DNA from: Terriglobia bacterium
GTDB lineage: Bacteria > Acidobacteriota > Terriglobia > 20CM-2-55-15
Direction: 5' to 3'
Assembly: GCA_963664115.2 (NCBI GenBank)
Contig: CAXWPJ010000009.1
Coordinates: forward strand, 64,001 to 128,000
Length of the DNA: 64,000 bases
Shown: positions 25,402-44,104 of the stretch, piece after piece
Numbering within the stretch: the first letter of the stretch is position 1
Layout of the letters: every line of letters begins with the position of its first letter
Program-made: the position numbers and the translations under genes
The notes under the pieces: model-generated
Databases searched by the model: none
What the model was told of the DNA's origin: nothing
What the model saw: the letters and a program-made list of their open reading frames with translations, nothing else

Positions 25402-26577
25402 ATGGGTACGTCACGCACGGCGGCCGCCTTAACGGTCCTACTCACTCTGCTCGGAGCCGGGACAACGCTGGCGACGGTTGCCAACGCGCAGCTCATACAG
25501 GGAGGATCCGAGGACCAGTCGCCACCGCCGGGAGTCGAGGCTCTGCCGGTGGACATGTGGACCACCGAGAACTTCTATTTCGATGAGGAATACTGGACAG
25601 ACCCGCGTTACGCCCGATGCAATACACCGCGCCAGCTGACCGACATGTGGCGGGCCGGCCGCGTCGGAGGGTGGGGTGACTGCGATCTCGACCGGGACAT
25701 AGCCGACGTTGTCAGCCCTTACGACTACCTGAGCGCCGAAGAACATTACACTGCCTTGCAGGCCGAAGCAGAAGCGGGGGGCGGTCCCACGATACATACG
25801 CGGGAAACCCTGCCAAACTGGGACGGGAACTACCGCCGTGGAGCACAAGCTGAACAGTGAGTATACGGTCGGAACCTCCAGACCGCCACGATGCTTTCGC
25901 TTCTGACTCCCGAGTATCAGGAACGCATGGCTCAAGAGACCTATCACGAAGCCGTGAGTAATTCACCCCAGTGGATGGCCGCGTTCTGCTATCCCGAAGG
26001 ACTCTGGCGCTGGTGGTCTCAGGCCGCCGTTGGTGGGGGTTATGAGGTCTTGATGACTCCGGCTCAGATCCAGTTCTTAAGCGGCACCGCAGACAACTTC
26101 CTGCGCAAGGTTCTCATCGGCCGCGAGCACGTGCAGGCCGGGGTTCCGCAATGGTATGGCGAAACCGTTGGATTCTGGAACGGGGACACGCTCATAGCCT
26201 GGACGGCCAACGTCCAGGGTTGGAAGCTGTCACATTCCATGCCGGAGTACAGCAATGAGTTTGAAGTTATCGAAGTCTTCAGGCCAAATCCGGATGGGAG
26301 CGGATTGATCGTTGAAGCGACATTCTACGATCCTGATGCTTTCGCTCAACCGCTGCATACGGTCACTCCATGGAATAAACGTTTCGAGGCTGACGACCCC
26401 GACAATCGGTACACATTCAAACAGTGCCGGACCCAGAGTACGATCATCAATGGAGCCGACGGACGGCCGACCCAGCTCATCTTTACTGACGAAGGATATG
26501 TGGATTACTTTGGCCGGCCATGGGCGCAGAATTGGGAGAGGCACTTTGAACAAGGCTGGGAGAAACCAACGGATTGA
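25402..26577 (+). pseudogene. Exported hypothetical protein (paralog of 27283-28482), interrupted by an in-frame TGA at 25858-25860
   Basis: GGAGGAG RBS, signal peptide; [15 protein letters not shown] aligns with [16 protein letters not shown] of the paralog; both halves are collinear with it. Confidence 0.85.
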
Positions 26578-26616
26578 CAAAGACGAGCTTGGATATAGAT
26601 ATGAAGGAGAGCAGCT

Positions 26617-27081
26617 ATGAATAATTTATCAGCAAAGACCTGGGTGGTCGCAGCAATTGTCGGCGTCATTTCCATAGGCGTCATGACCACGCCGGCCCTG
26701 TCGCACCACTCTTTCGCGATGTATGACCAGACAATAGAAAAAACCGTCACGGGCAAACTGACGCGGTACGTCCCTGGATCCAACCACGCACAGCTCATCT
26801 TCGCGTTGTTGAATCCCGATGGCAGCGCCGTCATGGAGAATGGCCGCGCTGTTCAATGGGGTGTGGAAACGAGCTCGGCGGCGGCGCTGGCGCGTTCCGG
26901 TGTCACCGTAGATAGTTTTCCTTTGGGCACCATCATTACGGTCACCCTGCACCCACTCAGAGATGGCCGCACCTTCGGAGCCATGACCAACACAGCCGGA
27001 CGGCTCATCGCTTGCGGCATGACCATGCCTGAGGGTGGTTGTACCGTCGAAACAGGCCAAGTCTTTTTGGGTGGAGATTGA
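26617..27081 (+). CDS. DUF6152-like exported protein
   Basis: Signal peptide ending ALS, then HHSFAMYD; NHAQL, WGVE, HPLRDG; AAGGAG RBS. Confidence 0.75.
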   Translation: MNNLSAKTWVVAAIVGVISIGVMTTPALSHHSFAMYDQTIEKTVTGKLTRYVPGSNHAQLIFALLNPDGSAVMENGRAVQWGVETSSAAALARSGVTVDSFPLGTIITVTLHPLRDGRTFGAMTNTAGRLIACGMTMPEGGCTVETGQVFLGGD

Positions 27082-27282
27082 TCCGTTCCAGCGTCACTTT
27101 TTGCCTGATTGGACACGGGTGAGGCTGAACCCATTCCGCATTTTTCTTCCAGGAAGACGCCGCGGCGGCGCGCTGCGGGAAGGGGCGCAGTCCCGCGATC
27201 CCCGCGACGTCGCCATCCGATATTCAATCGACATCGAACTCCGGTAACAACTGGCTTTAAGATATTGAGGGAGGAACTTCAA

Positions 27283-28482
27283 ATGGGTATGTCACACAGG
27301 ACAATATCCTCGATCGCAGTGCTCATGTTGCTTGCCCTTGTGGCAGCAGGAATATTTCTGACTCCCGCCGAAGCGCAGCGCGGACGCGGAGGCTTTGGAC
27401 GCGGCGCAGGCCCTGCAGTCGATCCCGGACCACCCGCAGGCATGGAACCACTTCCGGTCGACTTGTTTACGACCGAGAATTTCTATTTCGACAGAGAGTA
27501 CTGGACGGACCCACGGTATACGCGCTGTAACACGCCGCGCCAGTTGACAGACATGTGGCGGGCCGGCAGGGAAGGCCATTGGGGCGATTGCGCTCTGGAC
27601 CGTAACATCGCCGACATTGTGAGCCCACACGACTATCAGACGGGGGAGGAGCATTACCGTGCCCTGTTGGCGGAGGCCGCCGCCGCAGGCGGCCCAACGG
27701 AATACACGCGCGAAACTCTGCCGAACTGGGACGGTTGGTACGATAGAGGGGCTCGCGACGAACAGTGGATCTGGGGCCGGAACCTGCAGACCGCCACGAT
27801 GATATCCCTGCTGACTCCTGAATACGCCAAGAGGATGACGCAGCAGAACTACCACGAGGGAGTGAGCAATTCTCCACAGTGGATGGCTTCGTTCTGCTAT
27901 CCCGAGGGTTTCATGCGTTGGTGGGCGCAAGCCTCACTCGGTGGTCCCATCGAGGTCATGGTGACGCCGGATAGGGTTCAGTTTCTAAGTGGTCAGGCGG
28001 ACAATTTTCTCCGGAGAGTGCTGATCGGCCAAGATCATGTGCAACAGGTTCCCCAGTGGTTCGGTGAAACAGTCGGGTTCTGGAACGGCGACACTTTGGT
28101 CGCCTGGACGGCCAACGTCCAGGGATGGACCATTTCGCATTCGATGTTCGAATACAGCGGTGAGCTCGAGGCCGTGGAAGTGATCCGACCCAACCCCGAC
28201 GGAACGGGACTCCTAGTAGAAGCGACCTTTTACGATCCGGAGGCTTTTCGGCAGCCCCTTCATACGGTAACGCCATGGATCCTCCGGTCCCGCCTCGACG
28301 ATCCCGAAACGAGATACGAGTTCAATCAGTGTCGGGTCCAGAGCACGATTGTCAATGGTCCTGACGGTCGACCCACCCAGCTCATTTTCATCGATGACGG
28401 TTATGTCGATTACTTCGGTCGACCCTGGGCCCAGAACTGGGAAGAGCATTTCGAACAAGGCTGGGAGCGTCCCACCGATTGA
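27283..28482 (+). CDS. Exported Trp/Cys-rich hypothetical protein (DUF6152-associated type)
   Basis: GGAGG RBS, AEA signal-peptide cleavage, [30 protein letters not shown]; intact paralog of 25402-26577. Confidence 0.85.
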
Positions 28483-28521
28483 AGACGCGCCTCTCCCTCG
28501 GACTGACGCAAGGAAACGGGT

Positions 28522-28737
28522 ATGCGCTATATCGAGTTCAAAGAGGCCATCGGTGAGGCGCTCCGCCGAAATACCGACGGTCTGACTTGGGCCGAGTTGC
28601 GAGAACGCCTGGAACGGCAATACAAACGTCCGTGTCCGACCTGGACCCGGAATCTCGAGCGTGAGATCGGCCTGTCCCGCAAAAAAGGGTCAGGCCGCGC
28701 GCTCGTATGGCGCGTGCCTGGCTCACACCCTGCCTGA
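28522..28737 (+). CDS. Small hypothetical protein, possible winged-helix fold
   Basis: AAGGA RBS; GLTWAELRERL...PCPTW...LEREIGL...LVW pattern; fills the gap between convergent genes. Confidence 0.6.
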   Translation: MRYIEFKEAIGEALRRNTDGLTWAELRERLERQYKRPCPTWTRNLEREIGLSRKKGSGRALVWRVPGSHPA

Positions 28738-28766
28738 TATCCCCATTCCAGAGGAACGTCAAGCGG

Positions 28767-29660
28767 CTACTGCCCGAGGTAGTATTCGCCGGTCGTGTCG
28801 TCCGCGTAGGGATTCCGGAAAGTCTGATACAGCTCCTTTACGGCGGATTCAGGGTCGCAGTCCCAGGTTCCGATCATATCCTGGTCGGTTCGTTCCAGTG
28901 TGCCAACAAAGGTGAACGGCTCTTTCAGAAAGAGAGGATCTTTCACGGTGATGGACAGTTCCATCGTGTCGTTGTCGATGAGTTGGTAACGCTCTACCCA
29001 TGTGGCCATATGCGACCGGGCCACGTGCGAATGGTCATCGTAACCATCGGGATCCCAAGTGAAGTTAGTGGTTTCGACAACCAGCGTGTTTCCGTCCATC
29101 CAGCCGACGGGATGGCCGTGAGAATAAGAGAGCGCTGCAGGCGGGTGCTGCCGACCGTCCATCCACACCTCGCGGATCCAGTTGGACTGTTCGAAGTGCA
29201 TCACGAAGGCATCCGGCCTTTTGGAAAAACCGCGCAGGTAGCCTTCGGTCAACTGGGTTCCCAGGCTCGCCATCTGACAGGTCCATCGCGGAGACACCGC
29301 ATCATCCCCGTTTATAAACTCCATCCAGGCGCGACCTCTCCCGTTCAGGAACTGTTCCAATTGATCGATCGGCCACTGGCACAGTGGCGCCGGGTTTTCG
29401 ACCGTTCCTCCCTGACCCAATCCTGCGACCAAAGGGTTTCCATAGGAATCGGTTCCGGAGCCACAACTCTGACGGGGAGTCCGCCAGTCCCAGGTTCCAA
29501 TGAAGTTGTTCGGCACCTCAGAGATCGTGGGCACGCGAGTCAGATCAAACACTTGTGCTGAGGCGTCCTGGGAGCCAACGATCATGCAGATAAGGACCGC
29601 AAGGCAAATCACAGCCGCTCGGGATGCCCTTCGGTATAGATCTCTTCTAGTACTCTCCAT
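28767..29660 (-). CDS. Exported hypothetical protein, distant relative of the 25402/27283 pair
   Basis: AAGGAG RBS, ASA signal peptide, REVWMDGRQHP, GHPVGWMDGNTLVVETTNF, DPLFLKEP, WDC. Confidence 0.82.
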   Translation of the reverse strand: MESTRRDLYRRASRAAVICLAVLICMIVGSQDASAQVFDLTRVPTISEVPNNFIGTWDWRTPRQSCGSGTDSYGNPLVAGLGQGGTVENPAPLCQWPIDQLEQFLNGRGRAWMEFINGDDAVSPRWTCQMASLGTQLTEGYLRGFSKRPDAFVMHFEQSNWIREVWMDGRQHPPAALSYSHGHPVGWMDGNTLVVETTNFTWDPDGYDDHSHVARSHMATWVERYQLIDNDTMELSITVKDPLFLKEPFTFVGTLERTDQDMIGTWDCDPESAVKELYQTFRNPYADDTTGEYYLGQ

Positions 29661-32069: not shown

Positions 32070-32078
32070 TGATATAAT
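32070..32078 (+). promoter_or_regulatory. Extended -10 promoter of the kinase-phosphatase-NTT operon
   Basis: TGaTATAAT, 38 nt upstream of ATG 32117. Confidence 0.6.
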
Positions 32079-32116
32079 GGTTGAAAACCCCTAACAGTTC
32101 CTGCCAGGAGACGAAT

Positions 32117-32968
32117 ATGCAGAAGTCGAGAGCTGTTTGCTTCAGTCTTGCCGCTTTCCTTTGTGTTTTGGTGACGGTCCCGATTGCGTGGGGCCAGAAC
32201 GTAGCACCCGGCCCAGAGGAATGGACAGACGCCGAAAGGGAAGTTTTCCTGCAGACGGCCGAAATCCTTTCGGTCGAAGACATCGGAATCGGCATCACTC
32301 GCGCCCAACGTGCGACGCTCAGCGACGGCAGCGTCACACACGACGCTCAGATCCAGGCGATCGACGTGTTCCGGCGCGGCATAACGCAACTGCAGGGCAC
32401 CGTGGTAGTCAACTTCAAGGACAGTTACAAGTTCAACATCGCCGGATACCGTCTGGACCGCTTGCTGGATCTCAACATGGTCCCTGTCTACGTGGAACGA
32501 ACGGTGCGGCGCAGCAGATGCTCCGTATCGTGGTGGGTGGACGACGTTCAAATGATGGAACTGGATCGTTTCAACAACGGGATCGATCCTCCCGATATCG
32601 AGGCCTGGAACGATCAGATGAGCAGTGCTCGGATTTTCACGAAACTAATTTACAACACCGACCCTAATCTCGGAAATTTTCTGATCACCAGCGACTGGGA
32701 ACTCCACCTGATCGACTTCACACGCGCTTTCCGGGTGTTTGATCGCCTTCGAGAACCTGAAAACGTCACACCACGCATTGAGCGGCGCTTCTATGAGGGC
32801 CTTCGTGCCTTGAACAAAGAGCGGCTGGAGGAGGTCATGGACGGAATGCTTACCGGCAGTGAGATGGACGGCGTTCTCCATCGACGGGACCTCATTCTGG
32901 AGATACTGGACGCCCAGATCGCAGAGAGGGGCGAATCCGCGGTTGTTTACGACGTGCCGGGGCAATGA
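32117..32968 (+). CDS. Exported atypical kinase-fold protein (FAM20/Four-jointed/PI4K-II-like)
   Basis: CAGGAG RBS; signal peptide ending AWG; IAGYRLDRLLDLNMVPVYVER, SVSWW, catalytic-loop-like YNTDPNLGNFL (DxxxxN), metal-binding LIDF. Confidence 0.75.
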   Translation: MQKSRAVCFSLAAFLCVLVTVPIAWGQNVAPGPEEWTDAEREVFLQTAEILSVEDIGIGITRAQRATLSDGSVTHDAQIQAIDVFRRGITQLQGTVVVNFKDSYKFNIAGYRLDRLLDLNMVPVYVERTVRRSRCSVSWWVDDVQMMELDRFNNGIDPPDIEAWNDQMSSARIFTKLIYNTDPNLGNFLITSDWELHLIDFTRAFRVFDRLREPENVTPRIERRFYEGLRALNKERLEEVMDGMLTGSEMDGVLHRRDLILEILDAQIAERGESAVVYDVPGQ

Positions 32969-32974
32969 TTCACT

Positions 32975-34291
32975 TTGAGAGAGCGACCTGTGTATCGCGT
33001 TAAATCAAAGTTCGGAATCGGAACGCTGTTGCTGGCCATAGCTCTGATGTGGGCTCCGGTTCCCCTCCTGCGGAGCCAGGACGGGGAACGCATCCTGGCA
33101 ATGGCCGACATCCATGGCAACTTTGAGGCGGCCGCATCCCTGCTGCAGCGTAATGGCGTGATCGATGACGCATTGAACTGGGTCGGTGACAAGACCACGT
33201 TCGTACAGACCGGAGACTTCACCGACCGGGGGCCTGAAGTCCGGCGGCTGATGGATTTCCTGATCTCTCTGGATGGTGATGCCCCGGACGACAGTGTGAT
33301 CGTTCTCCTGGGCAATCACGAGAGCCTGAACATCATTGGGGACTTGCGCGACGTGACTGCGGCCGATTACGCAAGCTTCGCCGATTCGGATTCCGAGAGT
33401 CGCCGGCAGGAGGCTTTCCAAGCGTATGTCGATTTTGAGAAGCGACGCTCCGAACGACTCGGGAAGCCTCCAGTGTCGCCAACTCCAGAGATCGAGCGGG
33501 CCTGGATGGACGCGCATCCTCCCGGATTCCTCGAACACCGCGAAGCGTTCGGTCCTGAGGGAAAATACGGTCGATGGATCCGAGAGCTATCCACGGTGGC
33601 GAAGGTGGACGAAACTCTTTTTCTCCATGCCGGAATCCATCCCTCGCTTGCCGAGCTCTCCATCGATGAGATCAATGCCCGGGTCCGCGACGAGATCCGC
33701 GCCTTCGACCAGTCCTTCGAGTACCTGGTCTCCCGGGGGATCGCGCTGTCCTATTTCACCCTTGACGAACTCCTCGAAGCAGCGCGGGAGTCGCTTGATT
33801 TTGCGAATCGAACCAACGACCCGGAAAACCGAGATAGTGAGGCACAACGGGATGTTCAAGTCCTGGAGGGCCTGCTTGGCCTGGGAAGCTGGTTGATGGT
33901 CCACCCTGACGGCGTTCTCTGGTACCGGGGTTATAGCAATTGGTCCGATGAAGAAGGCCCAGCCCAAATCGAACAGTTGCTCGACAGCTACGATGTGGAA
34001 CAAATCGTTGTCGGCCACAGTCCCCAACTGCCCGGGGAGATTCGCGTTCGATTCGATGGACGCCTTTACCTGGCCGATACGGGGATGCTTTCAAGCTACT
34101 ACGCGGGAGGACGCGCTTCGATGTTGGAGATCCGGGATGGCGTCATTCGCGCAATCTATCTGGATGCCGAAGCGCGGCTGATGCAACCGGCATTGTCGCG
34201 GGCAAGGGCTCGGGCCAGCGTGGCCCTCGATCAGCCCAGGCAAATCATCGCGGTCAAGGGCCGGGCCACAGCCACGATTCCGGCCCTCTAA
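32975..34291 (+). CDS. Exported calcineurin-like metallophosphoesterase (Shewanella-like PPP phosphatase type)
   Basis: Signal peptide; DIHG, GDFTDRG, GNHE, HAG, LWYRG, VGHS, DTG motifs. Confidence 0.9.
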   Translation: MRERPVYRVKSKFGIGTLLLAIALMWAPVPLLRSQDGERILAMADIHGNFEAAASLLQRNGVIDDALNWVGDKTTFVQTGDFTDRGPEVRRLMDFLISLDGDAPDDSVIVLLGNHESLNIIGDLRDVTAADYASFADSDSESRRQEAFQAYVDFEKRRSERLGKPPVSPTPEIERAWMDAHPPGFLEHREAFGPEGKYGRWIRELSTVAKVDETLFLHAGIHPSLAELSIDEINARVRDEIRAFDQSFEYLVSRGIALSYFTLDELLEAARESLDFANRTNDPENRDSEAQRDVQVLEGLLGLGSWLMVHPDGVLWYRGYSNWSDEEGPAQIEQLLDSYDVEQIVVGHSPQLPGEIRVRFDGRLYLADTGMLSSYYAGGRASMLEIRDGVIRAIYLDAEARLMQPALSRARARASVALDQPRQIIAVKGRATATIPAL

Positions 34292-34300
34292 CCTTCACTT

Positions 34301-37057
34301 ATGTCCCACTGGATTGAGCGTCTCTTGAGCCTGCGGCGGGGAGAGCTCGGGGGTGGACTCCTCTTCTTCGCGTACTACTTCCTGATCATATCCTCTTATG
34401 TCGTCGGTCAGGTCGCTCGGGACGCCTTGTTTCTTGATCGCTTCGCTGCCGATCAGCTTCCGTACGCCGACATCGCGATAGCTGCGATGGTGGGTCTCGT
34501 TGTGGCCGGCTATATCCGGGCCGGCCGCCGGGTCGACCTTCGAGAGCTGCTGGTCGGTAGCCTTGCACTCTTTGCGGCTATTGCCTTCTTTTTCTGGTGG
34601 GCGATCCGCACGGTTCAATGGGCCTGGCTGATTCCAGCCCTCTACGTTTGGATCGGAATCTTTGGCGTTCTGGCCATCGCGCAGGTCTGGACCTTAGCGA
34701 ACTTCATGCTAACCACACGCGAAGCCAAACGGGTGTTTGGACTCGTCGGGGCAGGTGGAATTCTGGGCGGTATCTTCGGAGGCTTCCTATCCAATGCCAT
34801 TGCACGCAGCTTAGGGACCGAGAGTCTCCTGCTCCTGGTCGCAGCGTTCCCCGCGGTCTGCGTGATGCTTGTGATTCAGATTTGGCGTCAAGAATCCAAG
34901 GATACTGACCTTGTCGTTAACGACTCCAGCATGACGAGTTTAGAGAGTTCCTGGAGTCTGCTAGGCAGTTTGCAAATCATCCGTTCTTCTTCCCACCTGA
35001 AATCCATTGCAGCGCTGATTTGCATCACCTCCGTCGTCACCACGGCAGCAGGCTGGCAGTTCAAGGCAATCGCTAAGGCGTCCATCGTCGAAACCGACGC
35101 ACTGGCAGCCTTTCTGGGCTCGTTTCAGGGATACGCTGGCATTCTGGCCCTCTTGGCGCAATTGTTGTTGACCACCAGGGTGCTGCAGCGCTTCGGCGTC
35201 GGCGCGGTATTGTTCGCTCTCCCCGTCGCTCTCGTCCTGGGCACCGCCGGAGTTCTCGTTTTCGGGAGCCTATCGGCCGTGATTCTTCTCAAGGGAAGCG
35301 ATAAGGTGTTGCGTTATTCCCTCGACAACTCCGCGCTTCAACTGCTCTACCTCCCGGTGCCGACCGGTATCAAAGTCCAGGTCAAATCTTTCATCGACAC
35401 CGTCATCTGGCGACTTGGAGATGGAATGGCGGGAGTCACGCTGCTCGTCTTCGTGACGTATCTTCAGTTCACGCCTCGACAGGTGGGTTGGATTAACCTG
35501 ATGGCTATCGTTCTGTGGCTCTTTTTTGCAGACCGGGCACGGCAACAGTATCTGGCAACTCTTGGCGAGCGGGTACAGGAACACCGGATCGATACGGAAA
35601 GCACGTCGGTTCCGGTTCTTGATCGATCGACGAGCTCTGTTCTGGCGACGAAGCTCGACTCGGGCAACGCGGAGGAAATCTTATACGGACTGCGCCTGTT
35701 CGAAGTCGGGTACCACCAGACCGCCCACCCGTCGATCGTGGGCCTCATACACCATGACTCGGCCGAGGTCCGGGCGAGAGCTGTAGCAATTCTCAACGCT
35801 GTCGGTAACGCTTCGGTGAAGGACGAGATCGAAGCGCTTCTTGAAGATAACGCTCTAAGCGTGCGTACCGAAGCTCTGTTGTACTTGACACAACACACCG
35901 ACGTCGATCCCTTAGCCCGCATCCGTGAGCTGGGAGACTTTCCGGACTCCACCATCCGGTCCGCTATCGTCGCTTTCCTGAGTCGGCCTGGAAGTGCCCA
36001 GAACCTGGACGGCGCAAGGCTCATGTTGGACATGATGCTGGACGAGAAGGGATCGTCCGGACGCGGGACCCGTCTGGAAGCCGCCCGGTTGATCGGCCTC
36101 CTCCCTGCTGAGTTCGAAAACCAGGTATCGAGGCTCCTCGCAGATTCCGATCCGAAAATCGCAGGCTACGGCATATCCGCTGCCGGAAGCCTCCGTCGTC
36201 AGAAATTCGTTCATGCCTTACTGGAGCGGCTGGGCGATCCCGACAACGGTCAGGCCTCGGCCAGCGCACTTGAGAACTTTGGGGATAGAATCGTGGGGAC
36301 GCTCGGCGATTATCTCAGAGATTCCGAGGTTTCCATCGCCATCCGCCTTGAAATCCCAACGGTGTTGACCAGGATCGACACACTGGGGGTGCCGGACGCG
36401 TTGATTGAAAGTCTCCTCGAAGGAAACACGACTCTGCGCCACCGTATCCTTGCAGCGATAAACAAATATCAACAATCGCACCCGGACGTCCGTATCGATC
36501 CGCAATGGATAGAAACCGTTCTGGCTGCTGAGATCCTCGGCCATTACCGCTCATACCAGGCTTTGGGATTACTCGGGAGTGCCTTGAAGGGGAACGACCC
36601 TTCACTGGCCGCACTCGAAGAATCCATAGCTCACGAGCGGGAGCGAATCTTCCGCCTGCTGGGAGTTCTCTTCCCTGAACACGACATGCATGCGGCCTAC
36701 TTGGGAATTACCGCACACAACTCCCGGGTTCGCGACAACACGCTGGAGTTCCTCGACAGCATGCTCCGCCCTGAACTGCGTTCTCTAGTCATCCCGTTGA
36801 TCGACGACGGCGTTACCGTCAACGAAAGAGTTAGCCTGGCCAATGATGTCGTGGGAACCGGCGTGGAAACAGAAGAAGAAGCGGTCGAGATGCTCATCCA
36901 CAGCGGGGATCCCTGGTTGAAGTCGTGCGCAGCTTACGCCATCGGTGCTTTGGGGCTGAAGTCGCTCGAAAGCGAACTGGACGCATGGCAAGACGACCCG
37001 GACCCCCTCCTGTCAGAAACTGTCCGTCAGGCAAAACTGCGCCTGGCTAAAATCTAA
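34301..37057 (+). CDS. NTT/TLC-family (Npt1/Npt2, ATP/ADP translocase-like) nucleotide transporter fused to HEAT repeats
   Basis: About 12 TM segments with RDALFL, QVWTLAN..REAKRVFGLVGAGGILGG, LRYSLDNSALQLLYLPVP..KSFID..RLGD; C-terminal HEAT-like helical repeats. Confidence 0.85.
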   Translation: MSHWIERLLSLRRGELGGGLLFFAYYFLIISSYVVGQVARDALFLDRFAADQLPYADIAIAAMVGLVVAGYIRAGRRVDLRELLVGSLALFAAIAFFFWWAIRTVQWAWLIPALYVWIGIFGVLAIAQVWTLANFMLTTREAKRVFGLVGAGGILGGIFGGFLSNAIARSLGTESLLLLVAAFPAVCVMLVIQIWRQESKDTDLVVNDSSMTSLESSWSLLGSLQIIRSSSHLKSIAALICITSVVTTAAGWQFKAIAKASIVETDALAAFLGSFQGYAGILALLAQLLLTTRVLQRFGVGAVLFALPVALVLGTAGVLVFGSLSAVILLKGSDKVLRYSLDNSALQLLYLPVPTGIKVQVKSFIDTVIWRLGDGMAGVTLLVFVTYLQFTPRQVGWINLMAIVLWLFFADRARQQYLATLGERVQEHRIDTESTSVPVLDRSTSSVLATKLDSGNAEEILYGLRLFEVGYHQTAHPSIVGLIHHDSAEVRARAVAILNAVGNASVKDEIEALLEDNALSVRTEALLYLTQHTDVDPLARIRELGDFPDSTIRSAIVAFLSRPGSAQNLDGARLMLDMMLDEKGSSGRGTRLEAARLIGLLPAEFENQVSRLLADSDPKIAGYGISAAGSLRRQKFVHALLERLGDPDNGQASASALENFGDRIVGTLGDYLRDSEVSIAIRLEIPTVLTRIDTLGVPDALIESLLEGNTTLRHRILAAINKYQQSHPDVRIDPQWIETVLAAEILGHYRSYQALGLLGSALKGNDPSLAALEESIAHERERIFRLLGVLFPEHDMHAAYLGITAHNSRVRDNTLEFLDSMLRPELRSLVIPLIDDGVTVNERVSLANDVVGTGVETEEEAVEMLIHSGDPWLKSCAAYAIGALGLKSLESELDAWQDDPDPLLSETVRQAKLRLAKI

Positions 37058-38228: not shown

Positions 38229-38731
38229 GTCTCACGCTCCTCGGGCAAGTATACAGTTGCCTGATGCCCGTTTCTGTTCGATCAACCGGCCGGTACCTGA
38301 TCTCCCGTCGCTCCAATGCTCAGGATCGTCGCGACGATCGTGGCTTCCAAAAAAGTTTGGCTGAGACCCTCGACCGTGAAGCCTGCCACTAGGCGGATTG
38401 AAGCAGTCCGGCGAATCGGGAGTTGGAGACTCGTGGTAAATTTGCGTTCAACCGTCTTTTCGAGAAGACCTTTCCTGTCTACAACCAGCGAACAAACCGC
38501 GGCTTCCACCGGGGGGGACCCGAACCAAAACCCGATCGCGAAGTCACCGCTTTCCCCTAGAAGGCAAGGTCGTTTCCCATTAGAATGCACCCCCATGCCC
38601 TTCTCCCAGGATTCGAAGCGCACTCGTTCCGTTTGTCATGTTCTTCAGCGCCAAGTCTTTTCTACTTTCGCTTATGCGCGGTTCCGTTCTTTGGACAGAG
38701 CCCATCTTCGACGAAAGGCATAAAGGTGCAC

Positions 38732-39841
38732 GTGAACACTAAATTGAGCAAAACAAAGTTTATTTCGATCGCTGCTTCCTTTGCGTTATTTATGGCTGGG
38801 GTGGGTGTCGTGAACCCGGTACGGGCCCAGGCCCAGAACGTCCCCCGGTATGCGGTCGATCCGTTCTGGCCCAAACTGCCTCTGCCCGACCGATGGATCA
38901 CGGGCGGTCTGGGCGGAATGTGCATCGACGGCCGCGATCATTTGTACATCCTCAATCGGGGGAACGTAGACCCCGAAGATCTGGATGGAGCCAGCATGGC
39001 GCCTTCGGTGATCGAGTTCGATCCCGATGGAAATGTCGTCCGCTCTTGGGGAGACCCCTCCATGTTGGGAGACCGACTGCATGATTGCCATGTCGACCAA
39101 GACCAGAACGTGTGGATCATCGCTTCCGCAACAGGCATCGCACAGAAGTACTCCAGCGATGGCAGCGAGCTCCTGCTCCAAATCGGGGAGGCGGGCGTTT
39201 ATGACTCCTCGGACGGGACCCGAGAAGGCCAGGCCCTGAATTCAAACCGTGCCCAGTTCTTTCTGCCCGCCAGCATCGATTTGGACGCCGCAACCGGCGA
39301 CATCTATATCGCCGATGGCGAGCTACCCGGAGGAAACCAGCGAATTGCCGTACTCGACCGCAACGGGCGGTTTCTCCGCCAGTGGCCGCTCCACCGCAGC
39401 GATGCCGATGGCAACATCGTCCCCTTACCTCACTGTCTTCGCTTAAGCGACGACGGCCTTGTGTACGTCTGTGACCGGGAGGCGGATCGGATCCAGGTAT
39501 TCGATCAAATGGGGAACTTCATCCGGAACATCGACGTGCCCTGGCAACCCTATACATCGCCCGCGGGCCGTCTGAGCGGGATGCGTGGCACTGCCGTCGT
39601 CCTGGCTTTCTCCCACGATCCAGGTCAGCGCCTCATGTTCGTCGCGAATCAGCTTAGTTCGGAAATCGATATCCTGGATCGCCAGACCGGACAGGTCCTG
39701 TCGAGTTTCGGTGGAGGTCCCGGACGCTATCCGGGGCAGTTCACGCTACCGCACGGCATCGCGGTCGATTCAGCGGGCAATGTATACGTTGCCGAACAGG
39801 AAGGACGACGCATTCAGAAGTTCAGAATCGTAAATCCTTAG
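38732..39841 (+). CDS. Exported NHL-repeat beta-propeller (PAL-like)
   Basis: Signal peptide, VDPFWPK, IYIADG, PHC, VYVCDR..RIQVF, PHGIAVDSAGNVYVAE; start uncertain. Confidence 0.82.
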   Translation: MNTKLSKTKFISIAASFALFMAGVGVVNPVRAQAQNVPRYAVDPFWPKLPLPDRWITGGLGGMCIDGRDHLYILNRGNVDPEDLDGASMAPSVIEFDPDGNVVRSWGDPSMLGDRLHDCHVDQDQNVWIIASATGIAQKYSSDGSELLLQIGEAGVYDSSDGTREGQALNSNRAQFFLPASIDLDAATGDIYIADGELPGGNQRIAVLDRNGRFLRQWPLHRSDADGNIVPLPHCLRLSDDGLVYVCDREADRIQVFDQMGNFIRNIDVPWQPYTSPAGRLSGMRGTAVVLAFSHDPGQRLMFVANQLSSEIDILDRQTGQVLSSFGGGPGRYPGQFTLPHGIAVDSAGNVYVAEQEGRRIQKFRIVNP

Positions 39842-42795: not shown

Positions 42796-42916
42796 TTCGC
42801 TGCTGTCGGGGCATTAATCTTGGGCCCGTTGCCGAAGACGGTTATACTGGCGCCGTTCAGAACCACATCCGAATCCTGTGTTTCAACTACTTGCTCCTTA
42901 TGGGAGGACCCACGTC

Positions 42917-44104
42917 ATGCAGAAACCGAAATCTTATGTCGCGCTGGCCTGTCTCGCAGTTCTGGTAACGCTCGGCTGTGGGGCCGGGACCGCGGTCGAG
43001 AGTGCCGCTCCGGACGAGGTGGCCACCGGACCTCAGGCACCGATGTTCGAGGTCGATCCGCTGTGGCCGAAGCCCCTGCCCAACCACTGGATCCTGGGCT
43101 CAACGATAGGCGTCTCAGTAGACTCGCGAGATCACATCTGGGTTATTCACCGGCAAACCACCCTCAATCCGATCACGGAGAGCGGAGCCGCAGCTGATCC
43201 TCCGATCAGCGTGTGCTGCATCCCCGCCCCGAACGTTCTGGAGTTTGATCAGGAAGGGAACCTGGTGAGTTCATGGGGCGGCCCGGGCGAAGGATACGAG
43301 TGGCCCTCGTCCAATCATGGAATTACGGTTGACTACATGGATAACGTTTGGATTGGTGGCAACGGGGAAACCGATGCACATATCTTAAAGTTCGCGCGCG
43401 ATGGAACCTTCCTGATGCAGATTGGCCGCGCCGGCATGAACGGCGGCAGCAACGATCTGGAAAACTTCGGGCGCGTGGCCAAGATTTCCGTCGACCCAAA
43501 CACGAACGAAGCCTATATCGCCGATGGCTATCTCAACAAACGCGTCGCCGTGATCGATGCGAGCACGGGAGAGTTCAAGCGTTACTGGGGCGCCTACGGC
43601 AACATGCCCGACGATACTGATCTCGGACCATACGACCCGGACGCGGAGCCCGCCCAGCAGTTCCGCAATCCTGTCCATTGCGCCGAGATCTCGAATGACA
43701 ACTTCGTTTATGTGTGCGACCGCGTGAACAATCGCATTCAACAATTCCAGACCGATGGCACGTTCGTCGCCGAAGTGATGATCGCGCCGCAAACGCTGGG
43801 CGCGGGTTCGGTATGGGATCTCACGTTTTCGAGAGATCCCGAACAGACCTATATCTATCTCGCCGATGGCGTCAATGAGAAGGTATACATCATTCAACGT
43901 GACACCCTGGAAGTCCTGACCAGCTTTGGCGATGGCGGACGCTATCCGGGCCAGTTCTTCGGCGTCCACAGCATCGCGACCGACTCGTCCGGTAACATTT
44001 ATACGACAGAGACCTACGAAGGAAAGCGTCTACAGAAATTCGTAAACATGGGTCTCGGTCCCGTCACCGAGCAGGATCAGGGCGTGGTCTGGCCCGACAA
44101 TTAA
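42917..44104 (+). CDS. NHL-repeat lipoprotein (PAL-like beta-propeller)
   Basis: GGAGG RBS, lipobox TLG-C, VDPLWPKPLP, AYIADGY, PVHC, YVCDRVNNRIQ. Confidence 0.85.
   Translation: MQKPKSYVALACLAVLVTLGCGAGTAVESAAPDEVATGPQAPMFEVDPLWPKPLPNHWILGSTIGVSVDSRDHIWVIHRQTTLNPITESGAAADPPISVCCIPAPNVLEFDQEGNLVSSWGGPGEGYEWPSSNHGITVDYMDNVWIGGNGETDAHILKFARDGTFLMQIGRAGMNGGSNDLENFGRVAKISVDPNTNEAYIADGYLNKRVAVIDASTGEFKRYWGAYGNMPDDTDLGPYDPDAEPAQQFRNPVHCAEISNDNFVYVCDRVNNRIQQFQTDGTFVAEVMIAPQTLGAGSVWDLTFSRDPEQTYIYLADGVNEKVYIIQRDTLEVLTSFGDGGRYPGQFFGVHSIATDSSGNIYTTETYEGKRLQKFVNMGLGPVTEQDQGVVWPDN

Follow-up and report, generated by a model that had tools for sequence, protein, structure and literature searches.

NTT-HEAT proteins are widespread, but a 2017 survey of the NTT family assigned them no function (Major, Embley and Williams 2017, PMC5381601), and a 2020 review, in its excerpted text, regards the passage of ATP from the bacterial cytoplasm into the periplasm, across the inner membrane, as unclear and describes E. 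coli as having no ATP/ADP translocase (PMC7432876). Here we describe a three-gene unit encoding a Fam20-fold kinase-like protein (gene 1), a Shewanella-like (Shelph) phosphatase (gene 2) and an NTT-HEAT carrier (gene 3), found in a 64,000-nt stretch of a Terriglobia bacterium genome (Acidobacteriota; contig CAXWPJ010000009.1, positions 64,001 to 128,000 of the forward strand; hereafter the window). Both enzymes are predicted to be exported, and the association of the three functions recurs in other genomes. We compare the unit with its closest described counterparts and weigh the proposal, made in an initial reading of the DNA without database searches (the sequence-only reading), that it forms a periplasmic phosphorylation system supplied by its own carrier.

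Gene 1 shares with the secretory-pathway kinases Fam20B and Fam20C (PMC5865150, in excerpt) the fold, the catalytic Asp, the metal ligands, the Glu306-type acid and a predicted place of work outside the cytoplasm. Unlike these kinases, it is bacterial, comprises a domain of about 250 aa at 15-21% identity without the β3 Lys and αC Glu, and belongs to a family that is co-encoded or fused with a phosphatase. Gene 2 matches the Shelphs, as presented in passages of PMC535813, in its PPP motifs, the insert between GNHE and HAG, the DTG motif and its closest structure (1v73), but its insert is much longer and it is tied to a kinase and a carrier. Gene 3 has the architecture of the NTT-HEAT and NTT-HEAT-cNBD proteins of PMC5381601 and likewise a free-living host; in that paper, where the word 'kinase' has 0 occurrences, NTT-HEAT genes are linked to cNBD genes only, whereas the partners of gene 3 are exported enzymes and no cNBD gene follows it. 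AtNTT1, CpNTT1 and Tlc1 are its relatives by closest solved fold and profile homology, from which it differs in keeping 0/4 canonical residues, in its HEAT tail and in the outward direction proposed for it. CotH acts outside the cytoplasm at the spore coat. CotH kinases and the CotH-DUF4956-polyphosphate-polymerase set (10.1101/768473, in excerpt) are also bacterial, kinase-fold and extracytoplasmic, and CotH co-occurs with an NTT in 9/10 sampled genomes; in contrast to Fam20, the CotH fold is more distant from gene 1 (Z 11.5 vs 20.5), and Pfam CotH (PF08757) matched neither gene 1 nor any other protein of the window's genome (G000). In the open-licence literature, which misses most subscription papers, we found no description of a link between exported kinases or phosphatases and NTTs, nor of one between CotH and a carrier.

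The features of the unit are as follows.

32070..32078, + strand: extended -10 promoter-like element TGATATAAT, the sole perfect TGnTATAAT in the 64 kb window on either strand
32117-32968, + strand: gene 1, ATG start, 283 aa, Fam20/PI4K-II-fold kinase-like protein
32117..32194, + strand: predicted signal peptide of gene 1, about 26 aa (hydropathy/motif heuristic)
32975-34291, + strand: gene 2, TTG start (start codon uncertain), 438 aa, Shewanella-like (Shelph) PPP metallophosphatase
32975..33076, + strand: predicted signal peptide of gene 2, about 34 aa counted from the TTG (hydropathy/motif heuristic)
34301-37057, + strand: gene 3, 918 aa, NTT-HEAT carrier
34301..35590, + strand: NTT/TLC-family MFS carrier domain of gene 3 (Pfam TLC, AF2, Foldseek)
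35591..37057, + strand: C-terminal HEAT-repeat region of gene 3, predicted to be cytoplasmic from the topology of the MFS fold (Pfam HEAT_2)

Folds, motifs and predicted export

The sequence-only reading had placed three tightly spaced genes here and assigned gene 1 a Fam20- or PI4K-II-type kinase fold from its motifs. The genes lie on one strand with gaps of 6 and 9 nt, the motifs AGYRLDRLL, DPNLGN and LIDF are all present, and the kinase fold was borne out as Fam20-type by Foldseek, structure superposition and the family profile. The AF2 model (pLDDT 91.4, from 112 sequences) returned Fam20C as the top Foldseek match (E 1.5e-9, TMq 0.64). Superposition on Hydra Fam20 gave a VIA Z of 20.5 (rmsd 3.4, 242 residues aligned), and the three Fam20 structures compared scored 20.5, 20.0 and 19.1 vs 17.6 for PI4K-II and 11.5 for CotH. 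All six sequences matched by the family profile in the PDB were Fam20 (6/6); a PDB search with gene 1 as a single sequence gave nothing better than E 0.36. Pfam Fam20C (PF06702) produced no match above the cut-off for gene 1, and one two-domain relative passes it (29.4 vs 26.8 bits). The family comprises 1,292 clusters at 50% identity (E up to 1e-30). Four residues, D102, D182, N187 and D200, are invariant in 112/112 kinase homologues: D182, N187 and D200 take the places of the Fam20 catalytic Asp and metal ligands, and N187 and D200 presumably act as those ligands. D102, mapped through Hydra Fam20 (5xom), is the equivalent of the acid Asp152 of Hydra and Glu306 of Fam20C (roles according to excerpts of PMC5865150). 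Separately, six proteins (P0124-P0126, P0206, P0216 and P0241) join a Hanks-type kinase to a Fam20-like domain; the segment between the domains is weakly hydrophobic in 5/6 and absent in 1, and these proteins, which could be joined gene calls, were not used.

Gene 2 carries the full PPP motif set claimed for it (ADIHG, GDFTDRG, GNHE, HAG, GHS and ADTG). It matches Pfam Metallophos (PF00149, E 4.6e-13), its closest solved structure is the Shewanella phosphatase 1v73 (E 2.5e-25; also 2zbm and 2z72), and the Shelph motifs as defined in passages of PMC535813 are recognisable as GDxHG (reading ADIHG), GDxxDRG, GNHE, H(A/G)G with an insert, and D(S/T)G (reading ADTG). A plasmid search recovered 3 partial phosphatase matches and nothing else.

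The assignment of gene 3 to the NTT/TLC family with HEAT repeats was confirmed by Pfam TLC (E 3.9e-13, 49.5 bits vs a cut-off of 21), Pfam HEAT_2 (E 3.8e-16, 59.6 bits vs 27.7) and an MFS fold. The carrier domain was modelled at pLDDT 92.7 (AF2), the top five Foldseek matches were CpNTT1 and AtNTT1 structures (TMq up to 0.83), and profile homology to the plastid and parasite ATP/ADP translocases AtNTT1, CpNTT1 and Tlc1 reached E 7e-43.

Export was scored with a hydropathy and motif heuristic (mean hydropathy of at least 2.0 over 11 residues in the stretch before each conserved domain). Gene 1 has a single hydrophobic segment at residues 6-24, its N-terminus being modelled at low pLDDT, and gene 2 has one at residues 14-32. 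Signal-peptide-like ends were found in 84/93 stand-alone kinases, 24/25 phosphatases and 66/69 fusions, vs 0/63 cytoplasmic controls (response regulators, cNBD proteins and Hanks kinases) and 1/74 linkers inside fusions. By this heuristic the signal-peptide-like ends of both enzymes, noted in the sequence-only reading, are conserved, and the products of genes 1 and 2 are predicted to leave by the Sec route. Since the linker inside fusions is not hydrophobic (1/74), both fusion domains are predicted to lie on the same, outer side.

Linkage of kinase, phosphatase and carrier across genomes

The conserved linkage anticipated for the trio was recovered at three levels: in several gene orders, as fusions, and as co-occurrence within genomes. 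Among 31 relatives, 9 carry the kinase and all 9 have an NTT, which is present in 15/31 overall. The trio is intact in 6/9 of these kinase-bearing relatives (G000, G001, G002, G003, G007 and G017); in G012 and at a second G017 locus the kinase lies just upstream of the NTT, and in G013 and G030 the genes are unlinked. The window's genome is 97% complete and has a single copy each of the kinase and the phosphatase. It also holds a second NTT (L127, G000:C12:482212-483510), a single-domain protein with no kinase nearby, whose gene adjoins CBS-domain-like and permease-like genes (labels by eye).

In an evenly drawn sample of 80 other genomes from the phylum, with G000 left out, an NTT was found in 18/18 kinase genomes vs 11/62 without the kinase (10/61 if G076, counted as NTT-positive and kinase-negative, is excluded). 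The difference persists in genomes of at least 4 Mb (16/16 vs 6/24) and by family (12/12 vs 9/32), within-family contrasts occur in f9, f16, f25 and f41, and four further kinase genomes, reached through loci, all carry an NTT. All three functions lie within about 5 kb in 6/18 kinase genomes from six families, as separate genes or with phosphatase-kinase fusions, co-directional or divergent; with hand-collapsed copy counts, 0.31 such genomes were expected, and 0 of 2,000,000 simulations reached the 6 observed. The linked NTTs are spread over several FastTree clades and include both NTT-HEAT and single-domain proteins. At one locus (L212, G073:C23:41353-48862) a phosphatase gene is followed by five tandem kinase genes, divergent from an NTT-HEAT gene.

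Fusions of the two enzymes were recovered repeatedly. When longer proteins were searched for, 15 of the 22 matches proved to be phosphatase-kinase fusions, aside from a read-through in G001, and 29 fusions were found among the best 150 cluster representatives of the kinase family, of which the 48 longest were scanned. Among the best 80 of at least 553 metagenome fusion loci, a single-domain NTT lies within 1 kb in 14/80 (10 convergent, 3 downstream and 1 upstream), and loci with 1.5 kb on both sides have an NTT neighbour in 10/34. For the 68 loci with a scorable kinase domain, an NTT is adjacent to 14/34 fusions with intact catalytic residues vs 0/34 degenerate ones, a contrast that counts as roughly one event because the degenerate fusions mostly form one clade (27 rows, FastTree). 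A CotH-like exported gene adjoins 21/34 of the degenerate fusions; in this clade (L171-L208, e.g. L185 and L181) the neighbours are DUF4956 and an exported CotH-like gene, and genes resembling those of purine catabolism are often close by. One NTT-linked fusion contig carries RpoA, whose best PDB matches include E. coli RpoA, so the link likely extends to Gammaproteobacteria.

In the window, genes 1 and 2 share one frame and are split by a single TGA; contigs of runs X2 (possibly the source sample) and X5 span the site with 0 differences. The same-genus genome G001 (L001:8001-10175) reads TGG there, so that the two genes form a single frame of 724 aa in which a signal-like segment lies internally; this is either a true fusion or an assembly error. 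We did not take this read-through as the normal state, it being a lone case against G000, G002 and G003. Run X19 (an RNA library) yielded two contigs, 164 and 222 nt long, that fall within genes 1 and 2 at 99+% likeness; these do not show transcription and were set aside.

Two further exported kinase-like families were followed in the phylum sample. Pfam CotH occurs in 10/80 genomes, 9 of them with an NTT, and an exported family with the motif FYDDDP in 15/80, 13 of them with an NTT, which it adjoins in several loci. Pooling all three families, with no non-kinase exported family as a control, an NTT is present in 25/28 positive genomes vs 4/52. The FYDDDP family (kinase-like motifs, no Pfam family; L044:4962-6587, L052, L128, L219, L220, L231 and L237) has an Omp85 gene as its neighbour and often an NTT gene as well; profile comparison with the kinase gave 2.5%, Pfam yielded only sub-threshold HipA matches, in 2/7, and the family was kept as a lead.

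Readings of the trio

Exported kinase-fold enzymes need a phosphoryl donor, and a carrier of a nucleotide-exchange family is the only partner that every sampled kinase genome shares; on these grounds we propose export of ATP or another nucleoside triphosphate. With a little better than even confidence, we hold that a writer/eraser pair in the periplasm receives exported ATP or a related nucleotide from the carrier, where we infer both substrate and direction. The NTT-HEAT carrier would swap outgoing ATP (or another, related nucleoside triphosphate) for the spent diphosphate, the Fam20-fold kinase would write and the Shewanella-like phosphatase would erase phosphates on envelope targets, and the HEAT region would regulate the carrier from the cytoplasm. 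The targets are most likely envelope proteins, with glycans or lipids as alternatives, because the nearest studied relative of the phosphatase is a protein phosphatase. Exchange carriers follow gradients, and with high cytoplasmic ATP and an ATP consumer in the periplasm this one would run outward. An outward-supplying role has been suggested, though not demonstrated, for an NTT of an endosymbiont (PMC7969357, in excerpt).

The periplasmic phosphorylation system of the sequence-only reading therefore stands in part: folds, export-like ends and linkage agree with it, and the residues of the carrier and of the kinase do not. Mapped by profile alignment rather than structure superposition (an offset of 84 fits all four residues in chain 9j3j), the positions of AtNTT1 K155, E245, E385 and K527 read D57, G119, G251 and D374 in gene 3, so that 0/4 are kept, and gene 3 does not reach TIGR00769 (40.3 bits vs a cut-off of 387.2). 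Of the AtNTT1 mutants, K527E has lost ATP binding and E245K shows hardly any exchange (PMC3306366, in excerpt). By this alignment gene 3 is an NTT-family carrier without the residues of canonical ATP/ADP translocases. Some microsporidian NTTs vary at three of the four sites, yet keep K527 (PMC10654386, in excerpt). Across 84 NTT domains the K527 column reads D in 40, R in 17 and K in 16, R144 is conserved in 83/84 and R371 in 74/84, and no difference in carrier residues was seen between linked and unlinked NTTs. In the kinase, the equivalent of Hydra Fam20 Lys133 (the β3 Lys) is Q80, Gln in 106/112 homologues, and the αC Glu position is N107 in 111/112; according to excerpts of PMC5865150, Lys133 is the ion-pair partner of the Fam20 acid (Glu306, Hydra Asp152).

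Gene distribution weighs against the export proposal as well. Among the best 78 of 266 confirmed kinase loci, an NTT lies within 5.5 kb in 10/78, a phosphatase within 1.5 kb in 11 and both partners in 2, and 56 have none of the partners scored; in the phylum sample, 12/18 kinase genomes carry the genes unlinked. The carrier is thus often not adjacent, as a shared supply would allow, though the case for an operon is weaker for it. Three assemblies (G003, G007 and G013) have an interrupted NTT gene, through error or decay, and many NTT-HEAT genes sit instead with cNBD, histidine-kinase and response-regulator genes. Of the other NTT genomes, 4/29 have none of the three exported kinase-like families, and 3 genomes hold such a family with no NTT detected. 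At most 22 NTT candidates were scored per genome, and the co-occurrence tests overstate the association, since related genomes do not count as independent cases and kinase-linked loci supplied part of the NTT profile.

Inward salvage, in which the carrier imports periplasmic nucleotides after the phosphatase has shortened or freed them, and the kinase draws on ATP arriving by other routes while the carrier only recovers ADP or AMP, is in our view unlikely. It would agree with the uptake role of characterised NTTs in parasites and plastids (PMC5381601), with a PPP specificity that cannot be predicted from sequence in bacteria (PMC535813, in excerpt) and with the presence of some periplasmic ATP in E. 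coli without a translocase (PMC7432876, in excerpt), but it leaves unexplained why all genomes found with the kinase bear an NTT (18/18) and why NTT adjacency tracks intact catalytic residues in the fusions.

We also consider it improbable that the trio is a signalling module, in which the Gln/Asn-type kinase fold serves as a pseudokinase that binds nucleotide, or catalyses a non-kinase transfer, and the NTT-HEAT protein, as a sensor-carrier, signals nucleotide in the periplasm to partners in the cytoplasm. The joint replacement of the β3 Lys and αC Glu, the loss of canonical carrier residues and the frequent placement of NTT-HEAT genes beside cNBD, histidine-kinase, response-regulator and Hanks-kinase genes would be accounted for; a conserved block of kinase, opposite-strand histidine kinase, NTT-HEAT, cNBD, histidine kinase and response regulator (L028, L037-L039, L041 and L044) suggests a signalling tie of the carrier. 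The 112/112 invariance of the catalytic Asp, both metal ligands and the Glu306 equivalent argues the other way, as do the linkage of single-domain NTTs without HEAT repeats and the Lys/Glu-type kinases that fill the same operon slot (G007 and G017). The Gln/Asn type accounts for 77 of the best 150 cluster representatives; most of the rest pair Lys or Arg with Glu or Asp. POMK, moreover, is active without the β3 Lys, through a β2 lysine (PMC5142810, in excerpt). The Gln/Asn-type kinase is likewise predicted to be catalytically active, possibly with the β2 residue Arg65, kept in 104/112 homologues, standing in for the lysine as in POMK.

It is quite unlikely that another donor is at work, the carrier moving a different nucleoside triphosphate, a dinucleotide or phosphate, or the exported kinases drawing on polyphosphate. 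NTT-family substrates do differ (NAD, purine nucleotides; PMC5381601), and fusions without an NTT neighbour are often near a CotH-like gene and DUF4956, the latter known from CotH/polyphosphate-polymerase gene sets (10.1101/768473, in excerpt). These DUF4956 neighbours, however, belong to the degenerate-kinase clade and not to the window's type, the closest folds of the carrier are ATP/ADP translocases, and no polyphosphate-polymerase gene was identified beside the trio, without a dedicated scan for one. That there is no functional tie at all, with carrier and enzymes meeting by chance in large envelope-rich genomes or as one old inherited cluster, is very improbable: it would fit the absence of an NTT within 5.5 kb at 68/78 kinase loci and the non-independence of related genomes, but the link appears in several gene orders, in both NTT-HEAT and single-domain clades and on a gammaproteobacterial-type contig, and it persists after the size filter and in the four within-family contrasts.

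Setting of the trio and significance

The extended -10 ahead of the trio, also noticed in the sequence-only reading, proved to be the window's only perfect one. In same-genus relatives it is conserved in 2/3 (intact in L001, as TGATACAAT in L113, missing from L109). A sigma-70 scan requiring a -35 box returned 0 sites, and no terminator was found 3' of gene 3. The trio lies between a HupE/UreJ gene, which is divergent, and a gentisate dioxygenase gene, which is convergent; the next gene past gene 3 is on the opposite strand, and no cNBD gene follows in the window. Elsewhere in the window, positions 25891-29660 hold paralogous, probably exported proteins with a common C-terminal region (open reading frames 25891-26577, 27109-28482 and 28767-29660) and a small partner frame (26617-27081). 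Between two paralogous NHL-repeat beta-propeller genes (38585-39841 and 42878-44104) lie a malonate-transporter-like pair and a gene resembling an acyl-CoA ligase (the non-NHL labels by eye).

With a named carrier, consumer and eraser, each of which could be expressed in E. coli, the trio offers one testable answer both to the periplasmic ATP route and to the function of NTT-HEAT proteins. More broadly, and with confidence somewhat short of even, the NTTs of free-living bacteria may be dedicated to exporting ATP for a periplasmic kinome, made up of Fam20-like, CotH-type and other exported kinase-like families, with Shelph erasers, a bacterial counterpart of Golgi-lumen phosphorylation, and such Fam20-like enzymes could be the source of the animal secretory kinases. 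Should the carrier not export nucleotide, the finding reduces to a new gene association among known families. If the export proposal is true, reversible phosphorylation reaches the periplasm of many Acidobacteriota and of at least some other bacteria.

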